DNA of 11,969 bases from a virus. Its lineage: Duplodnaviria; Heunggongvirae; Uroviricota; Caudoviricetes. Position 1 is the first letter of the stretch. The number at the start of each line of letters is the position of its first letter. This document shows positions 282 through 11,670 of the stretch, in pieces. The notes under the pieces were generated by a model, which made no database searches, was not told the origin of the DNA, and saw only the letters and a list, made by a program, of their open reading frames with translations. The position numbers and the translations under genes were made by a program. The stretch spans positions 1-11,969 of the IMG/VR virus record IMGVR_UViG_2734482785_000020. One strand, written 5' to 3'.

Positions 282-536
282 TCAGGCCTGTAGTAGTTCC
301 AGCGCCATTTGCTTTTCCTCCGGGCGCATTCGTTCGATCAACAGCTTCAACACGCCGTTCTCCAGTCCGCTGGGGGTCAGTGTGTGCGAGTAGGTCAGAT
401 TCATCACCCAGGTATGCCCGCACTCAAGACGCTTGCAACGATAATACACGTCAGCAAACCGATCATCTTTCCAGAAGGTCTTTTCAATCACTGCTTGCTC
501 ACCACAGCAAAAACACCGCGCTTTCTGTCTGCGCAC
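282..536 (-). CDS. ogr: Ogr/Delta-family zinc-finger late-gene transcriptional activator (84 aa, GTG start)
   Basis: Cys-x2-Cys ... Cys-x4-Cys arrangement (RCFCCGEQ ... YRCKRLECGHTWV) followed by an aromatic-rich segment, matching the P2 Ogr / P4 Delta fold as recalled. The start codon is GTG at 536-534 with a GGAGG Shine-Dalgarno 7 nt upstream; stop TGA at 282-284. Confidence 0.75.
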   Translation of the reverse strand: MRRQKARCFCCGEQAVIEKTFWKDDRFADVYYRCKRLECGHTWVMNLTYSHTLTPSGLENGVLKLLIERMRPEEKQMALELLQA

Positions 537-1246: not shown

Positions 1247-2248
1247 TTACTCTGCTGGCTCTTTTTGTTCAGTGAATGCCATATTAGCTATCGGGTTAAA
1301 CCTTATGGCATCCGCCAGATAGTCGGGGGAAAAATGCGCATAAGTCATCGTTTGCTGGATAGTCGCATGTCCAAGAATCCGTTGTAATGTAACGATATTC
1401 CCACCGTTCATCATAAAGTGTGTGGCAAATGTATGACGCATGACATGCGTAGCCTGCCCCTTCGGTAAATCCGGCTTCACCTCCTGAAGGATCTCCCGGA
1501 ACTTCAGATAATCAACCTGATACAACAACCCCGTCCGGCGGGTCTTAATCAGCGGCACGACCGAATCAGCCACAGGAACCGAACGGGATTTTCCGTTTTT
1601 GGTGTTAAAGAACGTCACCCGGTTGCCAATGATGTGCTCTCCACGTAGTTCCGATGCTTCACTCCATCGGGCACCAGTAGAAAGACACAGAATGGCAACA
1701 CAACGCGCATCACCCTCCAGTCGCTCAAGAAGCCGCTCAATCTCATCATCAGAAAGAAAGGCCATCTCTGTATTCTGAATTTTTAGCTTGCGTATACTGC
1801 GCACAGGGTTCGGGTTGTGAAAGACTCCTGCTTCAATCAGCACCGTGAACATGGTAGACAGAACGCACAAGTCACGATTAATGCTGGATGGCATTAAGCC
1901 GGCCTGTAATTTCTCTGATCGATACTCAAGCATAAATTTTTGTGTCATCTGGCTGGCGCGCGGATCTCCCATTTCACGAATCACTTTCTCCAGCCGGATC
2001 CTATAGGTATCGCCGTAAGCCTGGTTACGGCCATCAAGCATCCACCACGTATCAAGCAACTCTGATAATCGCCGGCGATCTGCGGGTTTAGCCAGCCATG
2101 GGTTGTTATGGAAATTCTGTAAAATATGTTTTTCGAAGACCTCTGCACTCCCTTTCCTGACAAAAATTTTCCGTATCCGTTTGCCGTACGCCCCTTGGGG
2201 CCTGATATCGAGCATCCATCGCCCATCATCCATCTTTCTGATCGACAT
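1247..2248 (-). CDS. Tyrosine site-specific recombinase / integrase (333 aa, P2-Int-like size)
   Basis: C-terminal catalytic region HVMRHTFATHFMMNGGNIVTLQRILGHATIQQTMTYAHFSPDYL carries the conserved R, H-x-x-R and terminal Tyr of the phage-integrase fold. The ATG at 2248 lies 2 nt after the alpha-like stop (TAA 2251-2253), with a GGAGG-type Shine-Dalgarno embedded in the alpha 3' end, so the two are translationally coupled. Confidence 0.85.
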   Translation of the reverse strand: MSIRKMDDGRWMLDIRPQGAYGKRIRKIFVRKGSAEVFEKHILQNFHNNPWLAKPADRRRLSELLDTWWMLDGRNQAYGDTYRIRLEKVIREMGDPRASQMTQKFMLEYRSEKLQAGLMPSSINRDLCVLSTMFTVLIEAGVFHNPNPVRSIRKLKIQNTEMAFLSDDEIERLLERLEGDARCVAILCLSTGARWSEASELRGEHIIGNRVTFFNTKNGKSRSVPVADSVVPLIKTRRTGLLYQVDYLKFREILQEVKPDLPKGQATHVMRHTFATHFMMNGGNIVTLQRILGHATIQQTMTYAHFSPDYLADAIRFNPIANMAFTEQKEPAE

Positions 2249-2250
2249 AC

Positions 2251-4920
2251 TTAAGCCCCCTCCTTGTTACTAAATATCCAGCATTTCAGTGTATCCGGCT
2301 CTTTGCTTTCTGCTGCCCCTCTTCCGACATTTGCCTGCCTGGATACCTCGCTACGGACGGTTTTGTACTCAACCAGCGGTCGGGAACGCCCAGACCTGAG
2401 AAGCTCTAACATTTCCGGCTCAGTCCTGATCTCAACGCGGTGAATGGCGGCAGTCTGCCTCAGTTGCGGGATGCTGACGGCGAACCCCTTCCGGTATTCC
2501 TTGCCGAAGTGATTTACGCCGTATTTTGTTGTGCTGTCCAGGTAGTCGAATGCCTCCCAGAACGCTATGACCTCCGGTAAGTCATCCGTCACCGCTTCAG
2601 CCTGCGCTGCTGCCATTTCCTCCAGTTCCCGGCATGTGGCATCAAGCCATTCATCCGGGATATCAATAACGCATTTCAGCGCCCTGACCAGCGCGATAAG
2701 TTGTGCGTGATTTTTGGCGATGCGGGGATGGCGAATATTTTCGCAACCGCAAAGGCGGGTCGTTTCAGGCTCTGAGATCGCCAGAAACATTTCCATAATT
2801 GCCCGTTCGCGGCTGACCGCCCGATGAATAAAGCCTGATACTTCCTCAACGGGGTAGAGTTCCAGCCGTCTCGCCGCCAGTCGGGTATCAGGTGAATGGC
2901 GTTTTTTATCGGTATATATGCGAATCAGTCGCTCAATAATTGCCAGTGAGGCATTTACCCTGGCATTCTGTGCAATCACGATAGCACCCTTAAAATCCGG
3001 GTCGTAGGTGTTGTTATTGTTGGTCTTAACGCCACGAACGCCGATACCACCGCCGTTATAGAGGCTTTTCAGGTTGTCAAAGTCAAACGCGCCTTTTTTC
3101 TGCACCTTGTCCCCCCTGTCAGCCTCAATCAGCACAACGGGCAACCCGGCGACCTGTCCAAAAGTGCGCTTCCAGCCCGCTTCAGAGCCTTTCGTTGGAT
3201 CAACGCCTTCGTAGTTGTCACGACCGCACAGTCGCCAGCAAAAATCAATCAATGTTGATTTGCCCGTTCCGGGCTCTCCGGTGACTTCAAGGAAAGGGAA
3301 AGATTCTGCTTTATCCCGGATTTGCTCACTGAACAGCGAACCCAGCCAGAAAGCCAGGGTAATAATTCCCTTTTCACCAAAAGCCAGCCAGAGATCTTTC
3401 ACCCAGAATTCTGTGAATTCATCCGGTTTTTTATAGTTAATCTGTAATGTTGGTGTTTTACTTAATGGTTTTGCGTTTATGCCATCAATTTCAAAATAAT
3501 CCTCGTCATTGATTTCGTAGGTTTTACCATTACAAACCGCGACATCATTAAACAGCCACGCGCCAATCTCTTTGTTGTATCCGATAAAATCCTGACCAAT
3601 AACCTCTTTTATTGCGGGAAGGTCATTTTTTATTAATGCGTCAAGCTGCGTAGTCGTTCCGGTATAAATACCACCTTTTGCCACATGTAACAGGCGTTTC
3701 TTAAATTCAGATGCGGATGTTAATTGTCCTGATGTAAAAGTATTTTTCACTGTAGTACCATCCGGGAACGTTACACGGAAGTAATACCATGCTTCATCCG
3801 TGTCATTGTTTCGAATGTAATAAAGCGGCGCTGGGTTACAGTTTGCGATTTCTTTTACTGCACCGGATTCCTTAAGTGCAATTTTTCGCGCTTCATCTTC
3901 GTCAACATTTCGCTCATTAATGACACGCTCAACAGCCTTCATATGGCGCTCAATATCCAGCTTGAACCAGAAAACACGGTTATCAAAAGTAAAATGAAAT
4001 TCCTTTCGCTCACGAAAGGAAAACATTATTAGCGCCTTATCTCTTGGAGATTTCGCCAGCAATAAATCACCGTAATAGCGGTATCTTTTCACATCATGGC
4101 CATGCAGCCTTCCGGCGATGTGTAAATCATTCCAGTCGCGTTTATTGCTGTTTTTACCTGGTAATGCTGCCGCCGTTCTCCAGCCGTCTTCGGCGCTGCG
4201 TTCTGCATGTTTTTTCGCGTAACGCTCACCCGCACGCCCGTTATCCAGCGCCCACACGATAACCGGGCGTGGATTATCCCCGCACAGCTTCGCCAGTTCT
4301 TCCAGCGATTTATCAGGGTAGTTCACGGCAGACATGACAGAAACGGCCGCAATGCCATTCTGGTTAAGGCTGATGGCATCAAAGATACCCTCACAAATCC
4401 AGATTTCTTTGGCCTTGCTTAAATCCGCTCCCGGATAAGCCCACCACAGCCCCTTGTAACTGCCGGAAAAATTCGCCTTGCGAGCGAAGCGTTCCGGTCG
4501 GTCTATGATGCGCTCCCACCACACGCCGTCAGCCAGCGTAAAACGCACAGTAGCGGCCTGTTCGCCGCTTTCCTTGTCCTGGTATCGCTCCTGAGTAAAT
4601 GCCCCTTTCAGTGGCTCCACAGCAATATTGCGCGCCTCCTGAAGATAAGCTGCCGCTGCTGCACATGGGTCGTCTTTCGTGCTGATATAGCGATCTGACC
4701 ATGACGAAAACACATCCGGGTAAAGTTCTTTGGTCAGCAGGTCTGTACCGCATTTATTTTCGCGGCCACAGTGTACGATGTACGGCCTCTCAAGACTGGT
4801 AAACAGTTCCTTCTTTCCACATTGCGGACAAACACCATAGCGAAGATAGTTATTTTCTTCTTTAAAGTTGTAATCACGAATAAGACGGTTAATAATCTCT
4901 TTTCTGGTGTTATGTTTCAT
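2251..4920 (-). CDS. P4 alpha-like bifunctional DNA primase / SF3 helicase (about 889 aa)
   Basis: N-terminal zinc-binding motif (CPQCG ... HCGRENKCG), TOPRIM-like EGIFDAISLNQNG, Walker A VTGEPGTGKSTLIDF and a downstream VVLIEADRGD-type acidic motif, then a roughly 250-aa C-terminal extension, as in the iteron-binding domain of P4 alpha. Start placed at ATG 4920 (MKHNTRKEI); the ORF-track start at 4944 lies inside a hairpin and is less likely. Confidence 0.85.
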   Translation of the reverse strand: MKHNTRKEIINRLIRDYNFKEENNYLRYGVCPQCGKKELFTSLERPYIVHCGRENKCGTDLLTKELYPDVFSSWSDRYISTKDDPCAAAAAYLQEARNIAVEPLKGAFTQERYQDKESGEQAATVRFTLADGVWWERIIDRPERFARKANFSGSYKGLWWAYPGADLSKAKEIWICEGIFDAISLNQNGIAAVSVMSAVNYPDKSLEELAKLCGDNPRPVIVWALDNGRAGERYAKKHAERSAEDGWRTAAALPGKNSNKRDWNDLHIAGRLHGHDVKRYRYYGDLLLAKSPRDKALIMFSFRERKEFHFTFDNRVFWFKLDIERHMKAVERVINERNVDEDEARKIALKESGAVKEIANCNPAPLYYIRNNDTDEAWYYFRVTFPDGTTVKNTFTSGQLTSASEFKKRLLHVAKGGIYTGTTTQLDALIKNDLPAIKEVIGQDFIGYNKEIGAWLFNDVAVCNGKTYEINDEDYFEIDGINAKPLSKTPTLQINYKKPDEFTEFWVKDLWLAFGEKGIITLAFWLGSLFSEQIRDKAESFPFLEVTGEPGTGKSTLIDFCWRLCGRDNYEGVDPTKGSEAGWKRTFGQVAGLPVVLIEADRGDKVQKKGAFDFDNLKSLYNGGGIGVRGVKTNNNNTYDPDFKGAIVIAQNARVNASLAIIERLIRIYTDKKRHSPDTRLAARRLELYPVEEVSGFIHRAVSRERAIMEMFLAISEPETTRLCGCENIRHPRIAKNHAQLIALVRALKCVIDIPDEWLDATCRELEEMAAAQAEAVTDDLPEVIAFWEAFDYLDSTTKYGVNHFGKEYRKGFAVSIPQLRQTAAIHRVEIRTEPEMLELLRSGRSRPLVEYKTVRSEVSRQANVGRGAAESKEPDTLKCWIFSNKEGA

Positions 4921-4933
4921 ATATAAATCCCCC

Positions 4934-4963
4934 CCCCACTGCACCTTTTGCAGTGGGGTTTTT
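4934..4963 (+). terminator. Intrinsic-terminator-like hairpin oriented for the + strand, overlapping the alpha translation-initiation region
   Basis: 10-bp stem CCCCACTGCA / TGCAGTGGGG (4934-4943 and 4949-4958), 5-nt loop, then TTTTT (4959-4963); preceded by a C9 tract (4929-4937). On the minus-strand mRNA the same hairpin has no U-tract and partly sequesters the G-rich Shine-Dalgarno of alpha. Confidence 0.45.
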
Positions 4964-4964
4964 A

Positions 4965-5270
4965 TTAATTACTCGTTACTTCTTGTTTCCGGGCAATCCC
5001 TGCGGCTTCAGCCTGACGCCATGAAAAAATGCCGCCAGAAAGATGCATACCTGATTTTATTGATTGTAATTCCCGACTAATAATATTAGACAGAGATGTA
5101 ATATCTTTATTGGTAATTTCTGCACCCACTCCGCAGCTTCTTTCATCAAACATGATAGACATAAGGTTGATGAGATTAATTACATCTGTGAGATCTTCTT
5201 TTGCATCCTCTGTAAAAAAACCAACATATTCTTTATGTAAAAGATTTGCGTAATTCTGATTTTCAGACAT
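4965..5270 (-). CDS. Hypothetical protein (101 aa), AT-rich cargo-like ORF upstream of alpha
   Basis: Uninterrupted 101-codon ORF with GGGGAG about 5 nt upstream of the ATG. The composition is visibly more AT-rich than flanking genes. No recognisable motif. Confidence 0.55.
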   Translation of the reverse strand: MSENQNYANLLHKEYVGFFTEDAKEDLTDVINLINLMSIMFDERSCGVGAEITNKDITSLSNIISRELQSIKSGMHLSGGIFSWRQAEAAGIARKQEVTSN

Positions 5271-5337
5271 AAAAACTCCCCGACCCGTAAAGGTCGAAAT
5301 ATAAATTGAATTCAGTTATCAGTGGATAATTCGGGAA

Positions 5338-5784: not shown

Positions 5785-5931
5785 TTAATTTCCCCGTTCA
5801 TTCGTGCGGCTGTACTCCATGCGGCTGGCAGCACGCAGGGCATCATCACAGGTCTGATATTCCCTGACATGAAAAAACTGACGAACGTCGCCGCTCTGGC
5901 AGTTAATCAGGGTGATAAGGAGCTTAAACAT
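5785..5931 (-). CDS. Hypothetical small protein (48 aa, MFKLLITLINCQSGD...)
   Basis: ATG at 5931 preceded by GGGAGG about 6 nt upstream; the start overlaps the stop of the upstream ORF. Short, so support is limited. Confidence 0.35.
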   Translation of the reverse strand: MFKLLITLINCQSGDVRQFFHVREYQTCDDALRAASRMEYSRTNERGN

Positions 5932-6445
5932 TGCACGCCTCCCGGATACGAATACGGGAAACAAAGACCAGACGGGATGCCGGAAGCAGGGCGCGTGCTT
6001 CGCGCTCACTGGCAGCGGTAACGGTATGAAGGCGAATATTTTTACCGTGGCACTGCATAAAGCGCCAGATAAAATCAGGGCGTGTTGATATAGCCATTTT
6101 GGCGGCTCCTCTTACTGATTTACGGAGTCTCGCCAGCACGCTGCTAAACATGGTGGCGGGACGTAACAGGGTTAGCAGACTGGCGTAAGAGAAACCAGCG
6201 AGCACAAAGGCTCCCCCATTACGCCCCGCCATAATACGGGGTAGGGTGGAATTACGGGCACAAAAAAACCGCATTACGGAAATATAGCGGCTACCCGCTC
6301 TTACAATCAGGCTGCTAAACCCGGCACCTGTTTTCTGAGGCGCGGGCAAACGATACGCCATGACAAAAAAGCGAGTCAAGCAATATTGCAAATTATTTTT
6401 GTGCAATTGCGCTGAGTGATTGATTTCTGTACGTAAAAAGTTCAT
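5924..6445 (-). CDS. Hypothetical protein (about 173 aa), Arg/Ala/Ser-rich
   Basis: Only long ORF in any frame across 5924-6451. ATG at 6445 with GGGA 6 nt upstream (an alternative ATG at 6451). The unusual composition leaves the frame and boundaries uncertain. Confidence 0.4.
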   Translation of the reverse strand: MNFLRTEINHSAQLHKNNLQYCLTRFFVMAYRLPAPQKTGAGFSSLIVRAGSRYISVMRFFCARNSTLPRIMAGRNGGAFVLAGFSYASLLTLLRPATMFSSVLARLRKSVRGAAKMAISTRPDFIWRFMQCHGKNIRLHTVTAASEREARALLPASRLVFVSRIRIREACNV

Positions 6446-6493
6446 AATCATTCCCGAACTGTAGATTCATAGATTTTTCCTTTTGTTGGTGAA

Positions 6494-6519
6494 CGGCCTG
6501 CATCCTGCGGGCCGTTTTT
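6494..6519 (+). terminator. Terminator-like hairpin oriented for the + strand between the capsid-like gene and the small-ORF chain
   Basis: Stem CGGCCTGCA / TGCGGGCCG (one mismatch, 3-nt loop) followed by TTTTT at 6515-6519. On the minus strand it is preceded by an A-tract rather than followed by a U-tract. Confidence 0.35.
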
Positions 6520-6531
6520 CTTATCCAGCTA

Positions 6532-7584
6532 TCACGAATTAAACGTAATCACCCCTTCATCCACCGCCGCATAAAGGTTCACATTCGCCAGTCCATAGCC
6601 CTGATGACGCCATGCCCGCATGTTCAGACGTTTGGTGTCTTCGTTCATGTCGAACTCTGTACGGTAAGAGCCTTCAATGATGTTAATCAGCAGGTTCGAA
6701 AGTGTGGTCACAGCCAGGCGTCCACCCGGCATAAACGGCGGCACAAAGGCAAAATGCCCGGCAATGGTGCTTCCCCATGCGCTGGCGGCTTCGGTGTCTC
6801 CTGCGCCGTTTGCGGTGCTGAAAAGACGCAGACGTTCAGCAGCTGCAAGTTCTGATCCCACCATCACCACAAGGCGCGGATCGTTCTGCCATTGTGCGGG
6901 AATTTTCGTTCTAATCAGATGCTGCGCCAGTGCATCCACCCCCGGAAAATCACCGCCTGCGCCCAGCGTGATGGCATCGCTGATAATCTGTCGCCCTTCG
7001 CTGGTCTTCCTGGCAATTTCATGCCAGCCGGGCGCAACATCCTCGCCGTTCGGGTTGATGTTCGGTGCGGTGAAGGTTGCCGCTGACGTGCCGTTAAAGC
7101 CAATCCGCAGATCATCCAGGTAAATTTTACTGGTCAGATAGCCACACAAAATCCCCAGCAGTGCATCGCGGTTTTTATCGTCATTCACTGCATTGGCCAT
7201 CACAACCAGGTTAATCCAGTCGAGATATTCACATGAGTCCATCTCATAGCATTCAACCGGAGAGCCTTTAATATCCATGGCACGGCTAAAGCGTCCTTCC
7301 TCGGCGCGTCCGGTGGATAAGCGCGCATCCCCAATAAGGTTAATAGCGGACTGATGCGGATTAACTGACAGATATTTTATTTGCCCGGAAAGCCAGTTAG
7401 AGGGGGAAATAAAATGCACAAACGGATTTTTTTGCGTGTATGCGCTGATACGTGCGTAAAGCTCTCTTTCTGCAAGCACGGTATTAATGGCGCTTTCGTT
7501 TTCGTTCATCGCCGGAGATGAAATATTGATACTTTCAAGCACGCTTTCGGCTTTATCTTTCAGTTCATTAATATTAAAAAACAT
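6532..7584 (-). CDS. P2 gpN-family major capsid protein homolog (about 350 aa)
   Basis: Alignment by eye with the recalled P2 gpN sequence: GFNG...V.GW, G.GGD...DAL and DP.LVV.VG..L.A blocks (ours LRIGFNGTS ... VAPGW ... LGAGGDFPGVDALA ... QNDPRLVVMVGSELAA) in the same order and spacing. Start placed at ATG 7584 (MFFNINELKDK) with an AGGGGA Shine-Dalgarno; the ORF-track start at 7656 would overlap the upstream gene by about 60 nt. Confidence 0.65.
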   Translation of the reverse strand: MFFNINELKDKAESVLESINISSPAMNENESAINTVLAERELYARISAYTQKNPFVHFISPSNWLSGQIKYLSVNPHQSAINLIGDARLSTGRAEEGRFSRAMDIKGSPVECYEMDSCEYLDWINLVVMANAVNDDKNRDALLGILCGYLTSKIYLDDLRIGFNGTSAATFTAPNINPNGEDVAPGWHEIARKTSEGRQIISDAITLGAGGDFPGVDALAQHLIRTKIPAQWQNDPRLVVMVGSELAAAERLRLFSTANGAGDTEAASAWGSTIAGHFAFVPPFMPGGRLAVTTLSNLLINIIEGSYRTEFDMNEDTKRLNMRAWRHQGYGLANVNLYAAVDEGVITFNS

Positions 7585-7594
7585 ACATTTCCCC

Positions 7595-8470
7595 TTAAAT
7601 AATATCTTTCTTTTCGGTATGTACAGACAGCAAAGCGGTCGCCGCATCCCGTTCAATTCGTGGCATACTTATTCTGGTATATTCCTGTAACGTCATCGCG
7701 TGGCGAATGGATTCGCTGCCGTTGCTGTAATAATGCTTCGTCAGAGTGCGTAACGCATCATTAATATATTCCTGCCGCAAATGGTTGTATTTAGCCATTA
7801 CTGAATAAGGAATGAATTTGATTTCCTCATTGCGTAAAGTGACGATCGCACTGACTGCCGAAATAATCTCCTTATAAAGATTGATACGGCGATTTGTTTC
7901 CGCCTCCAGTCCGTCAAGCGAAGCGGAAAAAATCCACGCATTATCGCCATCATGAGAAAGATTTTTCCCTGTATTAATAAGGCGTATAGCTTGCTCACAG
8001 GTGGCGCGCGTCTTGCCGCAATTTCGTTTCTCATTTTCAAGCAGATGCGTTTCATGCTCGATAACGTCTTTTACTGAATACCGATCACCATAAGGGTTAT
8101 CAGCACCAGTGGGCTGTAACGGAGTGTTACGCAATTCGCTGATTTTATTTTCCTGAGCAGTCACTTTGTTTTCTGCTTCGCGGATTTTTTGCTGAATTCG
8201 CGCAATGGCAATATCGCAATCTTCCGCAATATCCCGCATTTCTTCATCACTGATTTCATGCACTAATGGCAGGCAATACCCTGTGATATCGCGATATTCC
8301 TCGGCGTGTCTGTGCATGTATTTTGATGCAATGATATCTATCAGGCGAATAACCAGAGAGACTTCAGATTGTCCCTTTTGATATACAAAACTACGGGACC
8401 ACGATGCAATCGTGGTCATTTCCGGGCAGTTTTTAAAAACGGGTGTTAATATCGTGATTGTGTTTTCCAT
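7595..8470 (-). CDS. Hypothetical protein (291 aa), unknown function, with a predicted helical central segment
   Basis: Long ORF with GGAG upstream; stop 10 nt before the capsid-like start. The central segment (IARIQQKIREAENKVTAQENKISELRN) looks coiled-coil-like. No catalytic motif recognised. Confidence 0.6.
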   Translation of the reverse strand: MENTITILTPVFKNCPEMTTIASWSRSFVYQKGQSEVSLVIRLIDIIASKYMHRHAEEYRDITGYCLPLVHEISDEEMRDIAEDCDIAIARIQQKIREAENKVTAQENKISELRNTPLQPTGADNPYGDRYSVKDVIEHETHLLENEKRNCGKTRATCEQAIRLINTGKNLSHDGDNAWIFSASLDGLEAETNRRINLYKEIISAVSAIVTLRNEEIKFIPYSVMAKYNHLRQEYINDALRTLTKHYYSNGSESIRHAMTLQEYTRISMPRIERDAATALLSVHTEKKDII

Positions 8471-8475
8471 AAATG

Positions 8476-8787
8476 TTACTCCGGTAAATCAGTGTCTCTC
8501 TTTTTCTTTTTAGCGTGTTCATGCGGGTTATTTGCTTCGGCAATAGTTGGCGGATTGCGCAACCACCATAAAACATCACTTAACAACCAGGTGCATGAAC
8601 AGCGCCCCAAAGAATGACGGGGAGGAAAAGCGCCGATTTTCTCCAGTTCCCAACGCCGGGAGCGTGAAAGCGTTGTCATCTTTTTACACTTCTCTTCCCT
8701 GATGCGTTCTTCGCAGTCAAAACCATACTCGGCGAGTATGGTGCGACGCTGTTCTGGAGTTGGTGGAATGAATGCGGATTGAGTCAT
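8476..8787 (-). CDS. AlpA-like helix-turn-helix regulator with an N-terminal extension (103 aa)
   Basis: C-terminal half (MTTLSRSRRWELEKIGAFPPRHSLGRCSCTWLLSDVLWWL) fits the AlpA/Xis-type HTH pattern (S.S.....E..G.FP....LG.....W...EV..W). GGGAG Shine-Dalgarno 7 nt upstream of ATG 8787. The roughly 36-aa N-terminal extension is unexplained. Confidence 0.6.
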   Translation of the reverse strand: MTQSAFIPPTPEQRRTILAEYGFDCEERIREEKCKKMTTLSRSRRWELEKIGAFPPRHSLGRCSCTWLLSDVLWWLRNPPTIAEANNPHEHAKKKKRDTDLPE

Positions 8788-8860
8788 GTTTTTCTCCCGT
8801 GCTCTGAACTTTTCGGGGGTTATTTTTCACAAACCGCTCCAATCAGCTCAAGGAGAAGAG

Positions 8861-8894
8861 GGCTAAATTAGCCTACCGGAAGGCTAATTTAGCG
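8861..8894. promoter_or_regulatory. Tandem palindromic operator-like sites (GGCTAAATTAGCC, 8 bp, GGCTAATTTAGCG) upstream of the alpA-like gene
   Basis: Two 13-bp near-palindromes centred 21 bp apart (two helical turns); together they form a 12-bp perfect inverted repeat. They lie in the 121-bp gap between the cargo ORF stop and the alpA-like start and are followed on the + strand by a T-rich run. Confidence 0.45.
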
Positions 8895-8908
8895 TTTAGA
8901 GAATAATT

Positions 8909-9964
8909 TTATCTTTTTAACCAATTGGTTATAGTGTCCTTCGAAATAGTAAATTTCTTTCCATTTTTTTCTGCAATCGCCTCTAGTGCTGTCGCTATCT
9001 TGGTTGGTTGGTCTTTCACGTCACTGAGATACTCACCTATAAGTAAAGCCAAAACATCCCGCATACGGCCAGATACGCGTTCTGACTTAGGTTTTGAGTG
9101 TGTTAATTTGTTGTCTTGGGATGTTGATTTGCTATCAGTCTCTGGAAGGGGGCCAAATGCGGAGGCTCTCCATTTATGAAGATTAGACATAATATAGGAG
9201 CTGTATTTCTTTGTCATTACACCATCACTACCCTCATTATTAATAACACTTTTAATAGTTAAAAAATCTGACTTTGACAGATACAAATCATCAATATCAA
9301 ACTTAATTTCTTTATCAGTTAACAGGCTTACGCTGAAATTACTATCAGGCGCATATATTCTATTGTCTTCACCTGGTTGAATTAACGGGCGAAATTTCCA
9401 TACACTGAAGAAAAAATCGGCATCTAATCCAAAAAAACCATGAACACTAGCATAGTATTTTAAATTTGGTGTAGAGGCATCTATTCCATATCGTGCTAAA
9501 CTTTCTAATTCTCTTTTAAGTGAGTCAGGAAATAATAAAACACTATTCACCACGCAAAAATCATCGCTCACACATAAATTAGTTTTGTAAGTAAAACTTT
9601 GATAAAAATCCCTTACATCCAGATTATCTATTGCAGATATTCCACCTGAACGCCTTTCTATTATATCAACAATGCGCCCGGCAATCTCGCTAAAGTTATT
9701 AAATGACTCATCAAGCCCTAAAAAGACCTCTTTTTCTGACTCATTCAATTCTTGTAAATCGTTAACAAAATCAATTAATTTATCATGCCAGACAAAATTA
9801 TCAGCACAAAATGGTTCAACATAGCAATAACCATCTTCAATCAATATATATAACCTTATATTCCCAGTCATAGCCCAATGAATAAAATCATCAACTGTAC
9901 AACCTAACAACTCCGCAGCCCTTGTTATTGGGTAAAACTCTCTTAGCGGTAATGCCATATTCAT
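8909..9964 (-). CDS. Hypothetical cargo protein (about 351 aa) with N- and C-terminal helix-turn-helix-like segments; AT-rich
   Basis: A 357-codon ORF open from TTG 9982; first ATGs at 9964 and 9958. N-terminus YPITRAAELLGCTVDDFIHWAMTGNI and C-terminus KIATALEAIAEKNGKKFTISKDTITNWLKR both resemble HTH motifs; the middle roughly 200 aa has no recognised motif. The composition is far more AT-rich than the integrase and the backbone, and the gene starts about 15 nt after the integrase stop. Confidence 0.65.
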   Translation of the reverse strand: MNMALPLREFYPITRAAELLGCTVDDFIHWAMTGNIRLYILIEDGYCYVEPFCADNFVWHDKLIDFVNDLQELNESEKEVFLGLDESFNNFSEIAGRIVDIIERRSGGISAIDNLDVRDFYQSFTYKTNLCVSDDFCVVNSVLLFPDSLKRELESLARYGIDASTPNLKYYASVHGFFGLDADFFFSVWKFRPLIQPGEDNRIYAPDSNFSVSLLTDKEIKFDIDDLYLSKSDFLTIKSVINNEGSDGVMTKKYSSYIMSNLHKWRASAFGPLPETDSKSTSQDNKLTHSKPKSERVSGRMRDVLALLIGEYLSDVKDQPTKIATALEAIAEKNGKKFTISKDTITNWLKR

Positions 9965-9978
9965 TCTCGCAAATAAAA

Positions 9979-11181
9979 TCAATCTCTTTTATTCAGTTTT
10001 TCCAGATATTCAAACCAGTCATTTAACGCTTGTAATTTAAAAGGAATATACTGGCTAAGGTTATAGTTAAATTCTGCCGAGCCAGCATTATAAACGTGCC
10101 CTAATAATGACTCGACAATATGAGGCATCACCCCCATATTATTTAGCCCCGTTGAAAATGTTCGTCTTAAATCGTGTAGCGTCCATTTCTCATTATGGCC
10201 AAACATTTTATACATTCGACGACCTTTCAGGGATACGGCTGTGTGTGTTCGTTCTTCCCCTAAAAGCAATCCTGTATCTCCTGTTTTTCCCTTTAAATCT
10301 TTTAACCAACCTCTTATAGCTACAGGTATTGGGCGAACAATTTTTTTACTGTTTTTGCTATTCCCCCGTGGAACTGTCCATTCCCATGAAATGAAATCCC
10401 ACTCACTCCAACGGGAGCGGCGCAACTCTGCCGTTCTGGCACCAAATAAAATCAATAGTTTTATTAGTCGAGAAAAATAAATATCTCCGCGCTCTTCTTT
10501 TCCAAAACGCCAAAGATCTGCTAATTCCCTGTCACTCAACACTCGATCGCGTTGCCCGGCAGCTTCGCCCACATCGCTTAAAGTTAAGTGGGCAAGCGCA
10601 TCGCAAACGGCATAATGCCGAACATTACAGAACCTCAATGCCTGTTTTGCGTGTTGAAACATTCTTCCGGCTGTTTTGGGGCTGATTGCACGTATTTCGT
10701 CAAAGCAGTTAACCCAATACCGCGTATCGCACCGTGATAACGGAAAACTCCCAATTCTGGGGTAAATATGTTTGCACAATTGCGCCCGTATCAGATCTTC
10801 ATCTTTGCGTTTGTGCCTTGCATAGTTAACAAGCCAGTACTCCAGCGCATCCCGAACAGTAACAGGGGTGCGGGTTTCTTCGGTAAAAAGCTGAATCTCA
10901 ATTTTGGGGTTAAGTCCGTTAGCCAACCAGTGGCGGCAGCGTTCCCGCCATTTACGGGCATCTTTCAAACTCATATCAGGATAACGCCCCAACGTTACCC
11001 GATTAAGAGTGCTATCACGCCCACCGAGCCGATATGAAAAAACCCAGCTCACATGCCCTCTTGTGGACAATCTAACCCCCAGCCCTTCACCATCAGCAAT
11101 CATCTCAACATGCTTTCTGGTTGTGCCTGTCAGGGCTTTTAGTTTCCTGTCACTCAGCTTATTAGTTCCAGACACCTTCAT
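9979..11181 (-). CDS. P4-type tyrosine integrase (about 400 aa)
   Basis: N-terminal arm-binding-type domain (GLGVRLSTRGHVSWVFSYRLGGRDSTLNRVTLGRYPDMSLKDARKWRE) and C-terminal catalytic core (LHDLRRTFSTGLNNMGVMPHIVESLLGHV...). Start at ATG 11181 (MKVSGTNK) with GGAG upstream; the ORF-track extension to 11271 has no ribosome-binding site. Confidence 0.85.
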   Translation of the reverse strand: MKVSGTNKLSDRKLKALTGTTRKHVEMIADGEGLGVRLSTRGHVSWVFSYRLGGRDSTLNRVTLGRYPDMSLKDARKWRERCRHWLANGLNPKIEIQLFTEETRTPVTVRDALEYWLVNYARHKRKDEDLIRAQLCKHIYPRIGSFPLSRCDTRYWVNCFDEIRAISPKTAGRMFQHAKQALRFCNVRHYAVCDALAHLTLSDVGEAAGQRDRVLSDRELADLWRFGKEERGDIYFSRLIKLLILFGARTAELRRSRWSEWDFISWEWTVPRGNSKNSKKIVRPIPVAIRGWLKDLKGKTGDTGLLLGEERTHTAVSLKGRRMYKMFGHNEKWTLHDLRRTFSTGLNNMGVMPHIVESLLGHVYNAGSAEFNYNLSQYIPFKLQALNDWFEYLEKLNKRD

Positions 11182-11188
11182 AACTCCA

Positions 11189-11214
11189 ATGTGTATACAC
11201 GTATTGATACACAT
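11189..11214. promoter_or_regulatory. Palindromic element (ATGTGTAT-N10-ATACACAT, containing the perfect palindrome GTGTATACAC) abutting the integrase ribosome-binding site
   Basis: Read directly from the sequence; it sits 8-33 nt upstream of the integrase start codon. Candidate operator or RNA structure controlling integrase expression. Confidence 0.35.
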
Positions 11215-11355
11215 AACATGGTAATACTCAGAAAAACTGAAGTCACCCAAGAACAGAAAATGCTGTAACACAATGGAATTAAATAATTTTTTATACGGAA
11301 CGTGAAAAAGTCAGAAAGGGAGAGAACAAGAAAAACATTACTTCTTGCGTTATTT

Positions 11356-11383
11356 TCGGCACCTTTTATGTAGCGAAGGTGCC
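11356..11383. other. 9-bp inverted repeat CGGCACCTT / AAGGTGCCG with a 10-nt loop in the integrase-upstream intergenic region
   Basis: Perfect inverted repeat in AT-rich intergenic DNA, followed on the + strand by a T-rich stretch. Could be a terminator, an att-associated site or a regulator-binding site. Confidence 0.3.
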
Positions 11384-11670
11384 GGAATATATTCTCTTTT
11401 GTTACTTATTTCTATACCGTGCACAATATTTTTATCCCTCATATTTATAGGGTAAATTACCTGTAAAGTAGTGTCTAATTACCCGCCTCGCAAACTCCAG
11501 TTTTCAAATATCTATTTCAGGTCAAAAGATTGAATTATTCACTGGAGACGATTCGTAAATTCGCTGGATTTTTGACTAAAGTTTCTTTAGGATTTGTCTC
11601 ATCGTATGATTAATTACACCAATCGTTCAACGTCTTGCTGATAAGTGATGGCGATTATATGAGGTTAGCA

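Follow-up and report, generated by a model that had tools for sequence, protein, structure and literature searches.

The primase-helicase gene of a P4-like satellite is preceded, directly upstream of its ribosome-binding site, by an intrinsic terminator that faces against the gene, and we consider it probable that this terminator is real, conserved and anti-oriented. The satellite is the IMG/VR record IMGVR_UViG_2734482785_000020, whose whole stretch of 11,969 nucleotides (nt) was analysed and is called the window here; its close relatives lie in Escherichia coli chromosomes, between hpt and gcd or beside a tRNA-Arg gene. From sequence comparison, the terminator seems best explained by a cis-antisense RNA, similar in design to sar of the Salmonella phage P22, that would repress translation of the primase, a reading to which we give an even chance of being correct. 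The local features are as follows.

4934–4963, plus strand: intrinsic terminator against the genes (stem 4934–4943/4949–4958, loop 4944–4948, T5 4959–4963).
4918–4933, minus strand: primase translation initiation region, with the ATG at 4920–4918, the spacer AUUUAUAU and a G-run Shine-Dalgarno (SD) sequence (complement of 4928–4933) abutting the hairpin.
2251–4920, minus strand: primase-helicase, the presumed target, 889 amino acids, with a Toprim match and a weak DUF5906 match.
4965–5270, minus strand: orf101, the upstream neighbour of the primase, without a Pfam match, with its stop codon at 4967–4965.

On the plus strand the terminator reads CCCCACTGCA (4934–4943), loop CCTTT (4944–4948), TGCAGTGGGG (4949–4958) and TTTTT (4959–4963), which makes a stem of 10 base pairs (bp), seven of them G-C, with a 5-nt loop and an energy of about −19.4 kcal/mol for the isolated hairpin. 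The RNA fold of 4897–4970 reaches −23.8 kcal/mol (z = −5.97), and 0 of 200 dinucleotide shuffles did as well. The canonical plus-strand terminator of the original prediction is thereby borne out, and its statement that the neighbouring genes are all on the minus strand holds for all convincing genes of the window. A pattern scan found 29 terminator-like sites in the window, against 12.8 ± 3.9 in shuffles, with this site ranked second and the top three all on the plus strand. Past the stem, the plus strand continues with the U-rich TTTTTATT and the minus strand with GGGGGATT, which is no terminator tail. The minus strand in fact runs from the stem into GGGGGAUUUAUAUAUG, the SD and start codon of the primase, and the hairpin is therefore no terminator in that direction. 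A sense-strand terminator was rejected on the same grounds, with only the GGTGGAGTTTTAT variants passing the scan, weakly, in that orientation.

The terminator adjoins the ribosome-binding site without overlapping it. An overlap with the SD and start region had been claimed, and this has to be corrected: the SD lies at about 4928–4933, the ATG at 4920–4918, and the stem starts at 4934, 14 nt upstream of the ATG, while the T-run ends 1 nt short of the orf101 stop codon. It is the body of the predicted antisense RNA (about 4903–4933) that would cover the SD and AUG. The same ATG is the coding-sequence start in RefSeq relatives, and the hairpin leaves the SD free in the mRNA fold as predicted. 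The presumed target had been called alpha and is a Toprim primase-helicase akin to those of P2-like phages; its best phage matches are P2-like phage primases at 42–52% identity, and P4 alpha was not matched by it in tblastn. Nine consecutive C residues at 4929–4937, which are G on the sense strand, cross the primase SD and the hairpin base. The run is 7 to 9 long among near-identical relatives and interrupted in others (CCCTCCCC, CTCCACCCC), and such length changes might arise by strand slippage and alter how strong the SD is or how it is spaced. Just before the orf101 start there is a sense-oriented hairpin on the minus strand (5278–5299, CGACC-UUUA-CGGGUCG followed by GGGGAGUUUUUAUG), with a polarity opposite to that of the primase-proximal hairpin.

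We lined up about 175 loci with primase relatives, from E. coli genomes, metagenomes and IMG/VR, on the start codon; the primase scan of genome contigs gave two loci only, and the diversity was supplied by the metagenome and IMG/VR scans. A single layout, in which the stop codon of the upstream gene is followed by an A-rich tract, a G+C-rich hairpin, the SD and the ATG, is common to every relative of more than about 88% identity and to several lineages at 54–76% primase identity. Across the lineages at least six sequence-unrelated stems are found at the one position.

Stem 1, the window type: CCCCACTGCA/TGCAGTGGGG.
Stem 2: CCCCCCCTGTA/TACAGGGGGGG.
Stem 3: CCCCACCGT/ACGGTGGGG.
Stem 4: AAGCGCCG/CGGCGCTT, with six different loops.
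Stem 5: AAGCGCCCT/AGGGCGCTT.
Stem 6: a longer AGCACACAA...TTGTGTGCT, whose inner stem covaries (CTGC/GCAG versus CCGC/GCGG).
Stem 7, in L148: a weaker, A/T-rich AAAATGCAC/GTGCATTTT of about −7 kcal/mol, under the threshold of the 92-sequence co-occurrence count given below.

The distance from stem to SD is always 0–3 nt. Tails of the TTTT(T)ATT type follow nearly all of the hairpins on the antisense strand and qualify them as terminators, that of L148 being weaker, whereas almost none qualify on the sense strand. Close relatives show three base pairs with changes in both partners, and the paired share of cells is 90%, compared with 41–59% in slid controls. The hairpin is absent from about 50 distinct sequences of other P2-like phages and more distant relatives. 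Some of the loci that have it (L111, L113 and the L121 group) are true P2-like prophage early regions and not satellites; because the hairpin occurs in both prophages and satellites, the feature travels with the primase module. P4 itself (NC_001609) has no such hairpin, and the gap from the stop codon of its ORF106 (cnr) to the alpha ATG is 14 nt. None of the phage records was matched by the window at the DNA level, and for want of such a match and of an equivalent hairpin in P4 we gave up the view that the feature is one already known from that phage.

We conclude from the alignments that selection maintains the hairpin, and that its orientation as a terminator facing against the genes has been conserved. 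Hairpins and 9/12 promoter matches are frequent in A/T-rich mobile DNA, and the structure could in principle be a chance or neutral inverted repeat with no function. We regard this as very improbable, given a fold at z = −6, unrelated stems and compensatory changes at one position across 54–100% identity, and the lack of the hairpin in the roughly 50 other relatives, a conservation pattern that effectively refutes chance.

A terminator that points against the genes raises the matter of what it terminates, and two further features bear on this.

4868–4896, plus strand: candidate sigma-70 promoter in primase codons 9–18 (−35 TTGTAA at 4868–4873, 17-nt spacer, −10 AATAAT at 4891–4896).
4903–4963, plus strand: predicted antisense RNA of about 61 nt, with its start inferred about 7 nt past the −10 and its ends taken from the promoter and terminator positions.

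The hexamers of this promoter, which the original prediction had picked out, are present and conserved at the same codons in most lineages, although in the window itself the match is at chance level. Over the first 130 nt of the gene, the top sigma-70-like site of the antisense strand coincides with the aligned codons of the window site in most lineages that have the hairpin. Its −10, AATAAT, TATAAT (four times), TACAAT (twice), TATGAT, GATAAT or TGTAAT, occupies codons 9–10 (Ile-Ile, Ile-Val or Ile-Thr); its −35, TTGTAA, TGGTAA, TGGAAA, TGGAAG or TTGGAA, occupies Asp-Tyr/Phe-Asn/Gln codons, at a distance of 17 nt upstream in all of the ten lineages except L148, where it is 18 nt. About half of the tested hairpin-bearing lineages have the site in the top 0–10% of 125-nt windows of the same gene. 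The conservation extends to the nucleotide level. Over 10 lineages with a median amino-acid identity of 61%, the third positions of codons 9, 10, 16 and 17, which lie in the hexamers, have a major-allele frequency of 0.875, compared with 0.579 for all codons (permutation P = 0.0011). Codon 10 ends in A in 8/10 lineages (the rare Ile codon ATA, also GTA and ACA), which gives the T at position 1 of the −10, and codon 17 is TAC or TTC in 10/10, which gives the G of the −35. Among 92 distinct sequences, terminator and promoter-like site are found together in 30 and neither in 49; 12 have the terminator only and a single one has the promoter-like site only.

According to the predicted fold, the first 30 nt or so of this RNA would be a weakly structured 5′ tail, with complementarity to primase codons 1–6, the AUG and the SD, and the terminator hairpin and a U-tail would come after it. 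We propose that the hairpin and T-run at 4934–4963 would work as an intrinsic terminator for transcription against the genes, and that its job would be to end a cis-antisense RNA of about 60 nt, made from the weak sigma-70 promoter in primase codons 9–18. The unstructured tail would pair fully with the SD, AUG and first six codons of the primase mRNA, which would block 30S binding and probably create a substrate for RNase III. Synthesis of the primase, and hence replication of the element, would be held down during quiescence, and the RNA would form a second control layer beneath the C4/CI-type RNA immunity region further upstream. After induction, strong sense transcription might outpace the antisense RNA or disturb the firing of its promoter.

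Several results weigh against this proposal. The promoter of the window is a 9/12 match, and there are 24 such sites on both strands against 20.4 ± 5 expected. Synonymous recoding of the same 23 codons with the gene’s own codon usage gave an equal or better site in 45% of trials, and the same test in other lineages gave P = 0.05–0.29 only; much of the recurrence of the promoter site follows from conserved amino acids. The lineages are related, so that neither the co-occurrence nor the third-position conservation represents independent events, and the four codons of the third-position test were picked after the data had been seen. The promoter region has a low nucleotide diversity that is unexceptional for the gene. 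The 12 terminator-only sequences are made up of 11 from one prophage clade (L121/L030/L115) and L167. In the AAGCGCCG clade, a loop-closing U·G pair is conserved on the sense strand only, and the hairpin of this clade may have a role in the mRNA also, or instead.

Two further observations belong with these. The L121/L030/L115 clade has, in place of the codon 9–18 promoter, a TGnTATGAT beside the ATG, at the position of Psar in P22. Close relatives showed no standout diversity peak over the predicted RNA and no conservation trough over the promoter, the main signal being the mosaic orf101. The antisense RNA of roughly 60 nt over the start codon that was originally put forward gains from the conservation of the terminator, the synonymous constraint, the layout of P22 sar and a second plus-strand promoter-terminator unit in the same element (6420–6522, described below), and loses from the L121 clade without that promoter and from wobble pairs that are mixed between the strands.

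The weakness of the promoter leads to a different use for the same terminator. It could be an insulator without a dedicated small RNA, stopping diffuse or distant plus-strand transcription that arises, for example, in the plus-strand region near the ogr/hok end or from spurious promoters in the primase and integrase genes, which are A/T-rich. Transcription would then be kept out of the upstream regulatory and immunity genes, and any effect on the primase would be incidental. The orientation and conservation of the terminator are observed, the nearby promoter in the window is weak and statistically unremarkable, and the +24 promoter is missing from the L121 clade, which does have the terminator. 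Further plus-strand promoter-like sites lie deeper in the gene and near 906–946, and strong plus-strand terminators recur, at 6491 and 4934. An insulator leaves unexplained, however, why the terminator always abuts the primase SD and does not sit elsewhere in the gap, why synonymous hexamer positions 34–40 nt upstream of the stem are conserved, and why the layout matches that of P22 sar exactly. We hold it to be a possible but rather unlikely explanation.

The hairpin could also act on the other strand, as an intercistronic stem-loop of the minus-strand mRNA directly 5′ of the primase SD. Here it might stabilise the 5′ end of a processed primase mRNA, with the A-rich tract serving for RNase E cleavage or for ribosome standby; alternatively it might tune translation initiation or coupling to orf101. 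The T-run on the opposite strand would then simply reflect a spacer rich in A and in stop codons. Wobble pairs and fold energies were considered as a means of deciding which strand folds and were dropped, since the wobble pairs point both ways by clade. L014 and L026 have U·G or G·U pairs confined to the antisense strand, the AAGCGCCG clade has its sense-only U·G pair closing variable 5-nt loops, with a sense fold 2–3 kcal/mol more stable, and among 29 variants the antisense strand is the more stable in 9/29 and the sense strand in 20/29. Such a mixture would be expected if both complementary RNAs fold, and would keep a purely mRNA-based role alive.

Other evidence for an mRNA element is that the stem is always within 0–3 nt of the SD, that the SD is left free in the mRNA fold, and that a sense-oriented hairpin, SD and U-run also stand before orf101 (5278–5299). 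On the other side, the A-tract is conserved beside every stem variant and completes a textbook terminator, which a 5′ stabiliser would not need. The antisense-only wobble pairs of L014 and L026 and the plus-strand-only G·U pairs in all variants of a second hairpin, at 6491–6517, also speak against it, and it is silent on the conserved hexamers. An mRNA element is not exclusive of the antisense RNA, as both RNAs would carry the complementary hairpin. As the explanation of the feature we find it doubtful.

The second hairpin lies near the P1/P4-type RNA immunity region (6149–6356), and the following features were found in this part of the element.

6149–6236, minus strand: C4 antisense RNA (RF01695; Rfam, 74 bits).
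6262–6343, minus strand: isrK-like leader with terminator (47 bits, just below the gathering score).
6304–6356, minus strand: c4-a1b1-like element (Rfam).
6420–6522, plus strand: second candidate small-RNA unit (TTGATT-17-CATAAT at 6420–6448, terminator at 6491–6517, T-run to 6522).

The second unit is divergent from a minus-strand immunity promoter (6379–6350), whose predicted start coincides with the isrK-like match. Its terminator is a canonical one on the plus strand, with G·U pairs that are A·C mismatches on the minus strand (−23.6 versus −15.6 kcal/mol). It corresponds to a site that had been placed at 6494–6519; the structure was called correctly, and the coordinates are really 6491–6517 plus the T-run to 6522. 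TTGATT-17-CATAAT is kept in all relatives of at least 76% identity, while the spacer and downstream sequence vary, and a plus-strand terminator follows it in three unrelated contexts.

Context 1: the window type.
Context 2: GCTCGCT-loop-AGCGAGC-T-run, in relatives without the capsid-like genes.
Context 3: ATCCCTG-loop-CAGGGAT-T8, in L107.

The RNA predicted for this unit measures about 68 nt in the window, and about 95 nt where relatives lack the capsid-like genes, and 6420–6522 is arguably a second and better-supported candidate small-RNA gene. A weak Hrs13 match at 6449–6522 (18.8 bits, E = 0.86) was dismissed as terminator-driven. An “Icd-like” open reading frame (ORF) of RefSeq (5924–6451) spans the C4, isrK-like and c4-a1b1-like RNAs, as the eta/kil ORFs span cI in P4.

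The theme of plus-strand hairpins with T-runs had been extended to a third site, at 8861–8910, upstream of a gene for an AlpA/Vis-like regulator (alpA-like). The recurrence holds for the second site described above but not, in the form given, here, where the hairpin at 8862–8893 has no T-run directly after it.

8802–8818, plus strand: weak terminator-like hairpin that includes the complement of the alpA SD.
8862–8893, no strand assigned: 13-bp A/T-rich hairpin with no adjacent T-run, not called by the terminator scan.

In the smaller structure the complement of the alpA SD pairs with a G-run that is followed by a T-run on the plus strand, and its variants covary (CCUCC/GGAGG, CCCCC/GGGGG, CUCCCG/CGGGGG). 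The larger hairpin shows compensatory and wobble changes among relatives. The structures of 8802–8893 may belong to the same regulatory theme.

Lineages differ in the loops on their conserved stems and in the sequence between the SD and codon 5. A bolder reading of this is that P2-type prophages and P4-like satellites would, throughout the clade that shares this primase module, control replication with sar-like RNAs, that these differences would be determinants of specificity (incompatibility), and that a second antisense RNA at 6455–6522 would combine with C4 into a three-RNA circuit. We think this improbable. If it were true, co-resident satellites and helpers might avoid or exploit cross-silencing of each other’s primases.

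The narrower proposal, of a single antisense RNA at the primase, has consequences of its own. A real transcript would amount to a regulator absent from existing annotation, one by which primase synthesis is set independently of the other operon genes. It would give this clade of satellites and prophages a plasmid-like or P22-like antisense brake on replication, and would define a testable RNA family that genome annotation now misses. If only the terminator is real, it would still be a clear case of a conserved anti-oriented terminator selected inside a one-directional operon. P4-like satellites are found in a large share of Enterobacterales genomes (PMC8628076). To our knowledge, control of their replication genes is known only from P4, which is itself without this feature.

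The remaining genes of the element, all on the minus strand, are these.

9979–11271, minus strand: integrase.
8909–9982, minus strand: orf357.
8476–8787, minus strand: AlpA/Vis-like regulator (alpA-like), ATG at 8787.
7595–8470, minus strand: orf291.
6532–7656, minus strand: P2-family capsid-like gene.
Between the RNA immunity region and orf101, minus strand: several small ORFs.
1247–2248, minus strand: second integrase (tyrosine recombinase).
282–536, minus strand: Ogr/Delta-like zinc-finger gene.

The gene for the second tyrosine recombinase starts 3 nt past the primase stop codon, and this order is kept in all of the E. coli relatives inspected. Near relatives occupy two chromosomal sites, hpt–gcd and a tRNA-Arg gene beside yfdC (L006, L008 and L015 versus L001, L004 and L005). 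Elements at the two sites differ in their end integrases and have the same primase module, and some genomes have two copies. There are 0 standard laboratory strains among the 66 E. coli genomes with the site. The capsid-like gene and orf291 (6532–8470) are found in L001, L009 and L010 and are missing from others, in a comparison that took in L004–L008, L011–L014 and L017; relatives without them have the AlpA-like gene directly upstream of the immunity region, and L006 has a capsid-like gene at the opposite end of the element. The pair looks like a movable two-gene cassette. Toward the ends of the window, a long inverted repeat lies in the gap from the ogr/delta-like gene to the second integrase (767–880), matched by plant microRNA-precursor models by shape only (E = 0.2–0.3), and the stretch from the integrase start to gcd has a 13-bp plus-strand hairpin that lacks a T-run (11354–11387). 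Relatives have a Hok/Gef gene on the plus strand past ogr.

The kind of regulator proposed for the primase is already well known, and for the feature itself we found no Rfam family, record annotation or paper. A scan of the whole window with Rfam 15 at E ≤ 1 gave no match at 4860–4970, the inspected RefSeq records (15 opened of 70 matching genomes listed) had no RNA annotation at the site, and literature searches for an antisense RNA at a satellite or prophage primase gave nothing relevant. With no Rfam match at the site, the likeness to sar is an analogy of design and not family membership.

That analogy is close. In the immI arc-ant region of P22, an upstream stop codon, an antisense terminator, an SD, an ATG and a promoter in the first codons of the target come in the same order as their counterparts in the window, where the promoter is a candidate one. 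The annotated P22 record has the arc stop codon at 4021–4023, the sar terminator at 4022–4059, the ant ATG at 4092 and Psar at 4098–4126, with a sar RNA of 70 nt; the counterparts in the window are the orf101 stop codon at 4965–4967, the terminator at 4934–4963, the ATG at 4920 and the promoter-like site at 4868–4896, with a predicted RNA of about 61 nt. Both are found in a one-directional operon of a temperate element with an RNA- or repressor-based immunity layer. Sar is listed as inhibiting anti-repression (PMC5415839), and its target is an antirepressor, whereas here it would be a replication primase-helicase, and the two share no sequence similarity. The −10 ends 24 nt inside the ORF in the window and about 6 nt inside it in P22, and the L121 clade has its −10-like element placed much as in P22. 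Experiments have established sar, whereas the RNA of the window is predicted only.

The plasmid copy-number RNAs RNA II of pMV158/pLS1 and CopA of R1, and RNA-OUT of IS10, are short cis-antisense RNAs with a promoter in or near the 5′ end of a rep or transposase gene and a hairpin terminator in the upstream gap, and they pair with the translation initiation region. Their target is an initiator of replication or transposition, as proposed for the window; CopA/CopT of R1 is listed as a case of cis-encoded translational inhibition (PMC5415839). Unlike in these plasmid and insertion-sequence systems, the element here is an integrated satellite or prophage, with the gene in a long operon, and no homology was detected. 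Variable loops on conserved stems would fit kissing-loop recognition, as in the plasmid systems, though they are also expected for any terminator. The C4/CI immunity RNAs of P1, P7 and P4 (RF01695, RF03163), present in the window as well, are likewise RNA regulators of the early operon of a temperate element. They are encoded on the same strand as their targets, are processed from the operon transcript and act in trans on short repeats, whereas the RNA predicted at the primase lies on the opposite strand and would act by full complementarity.

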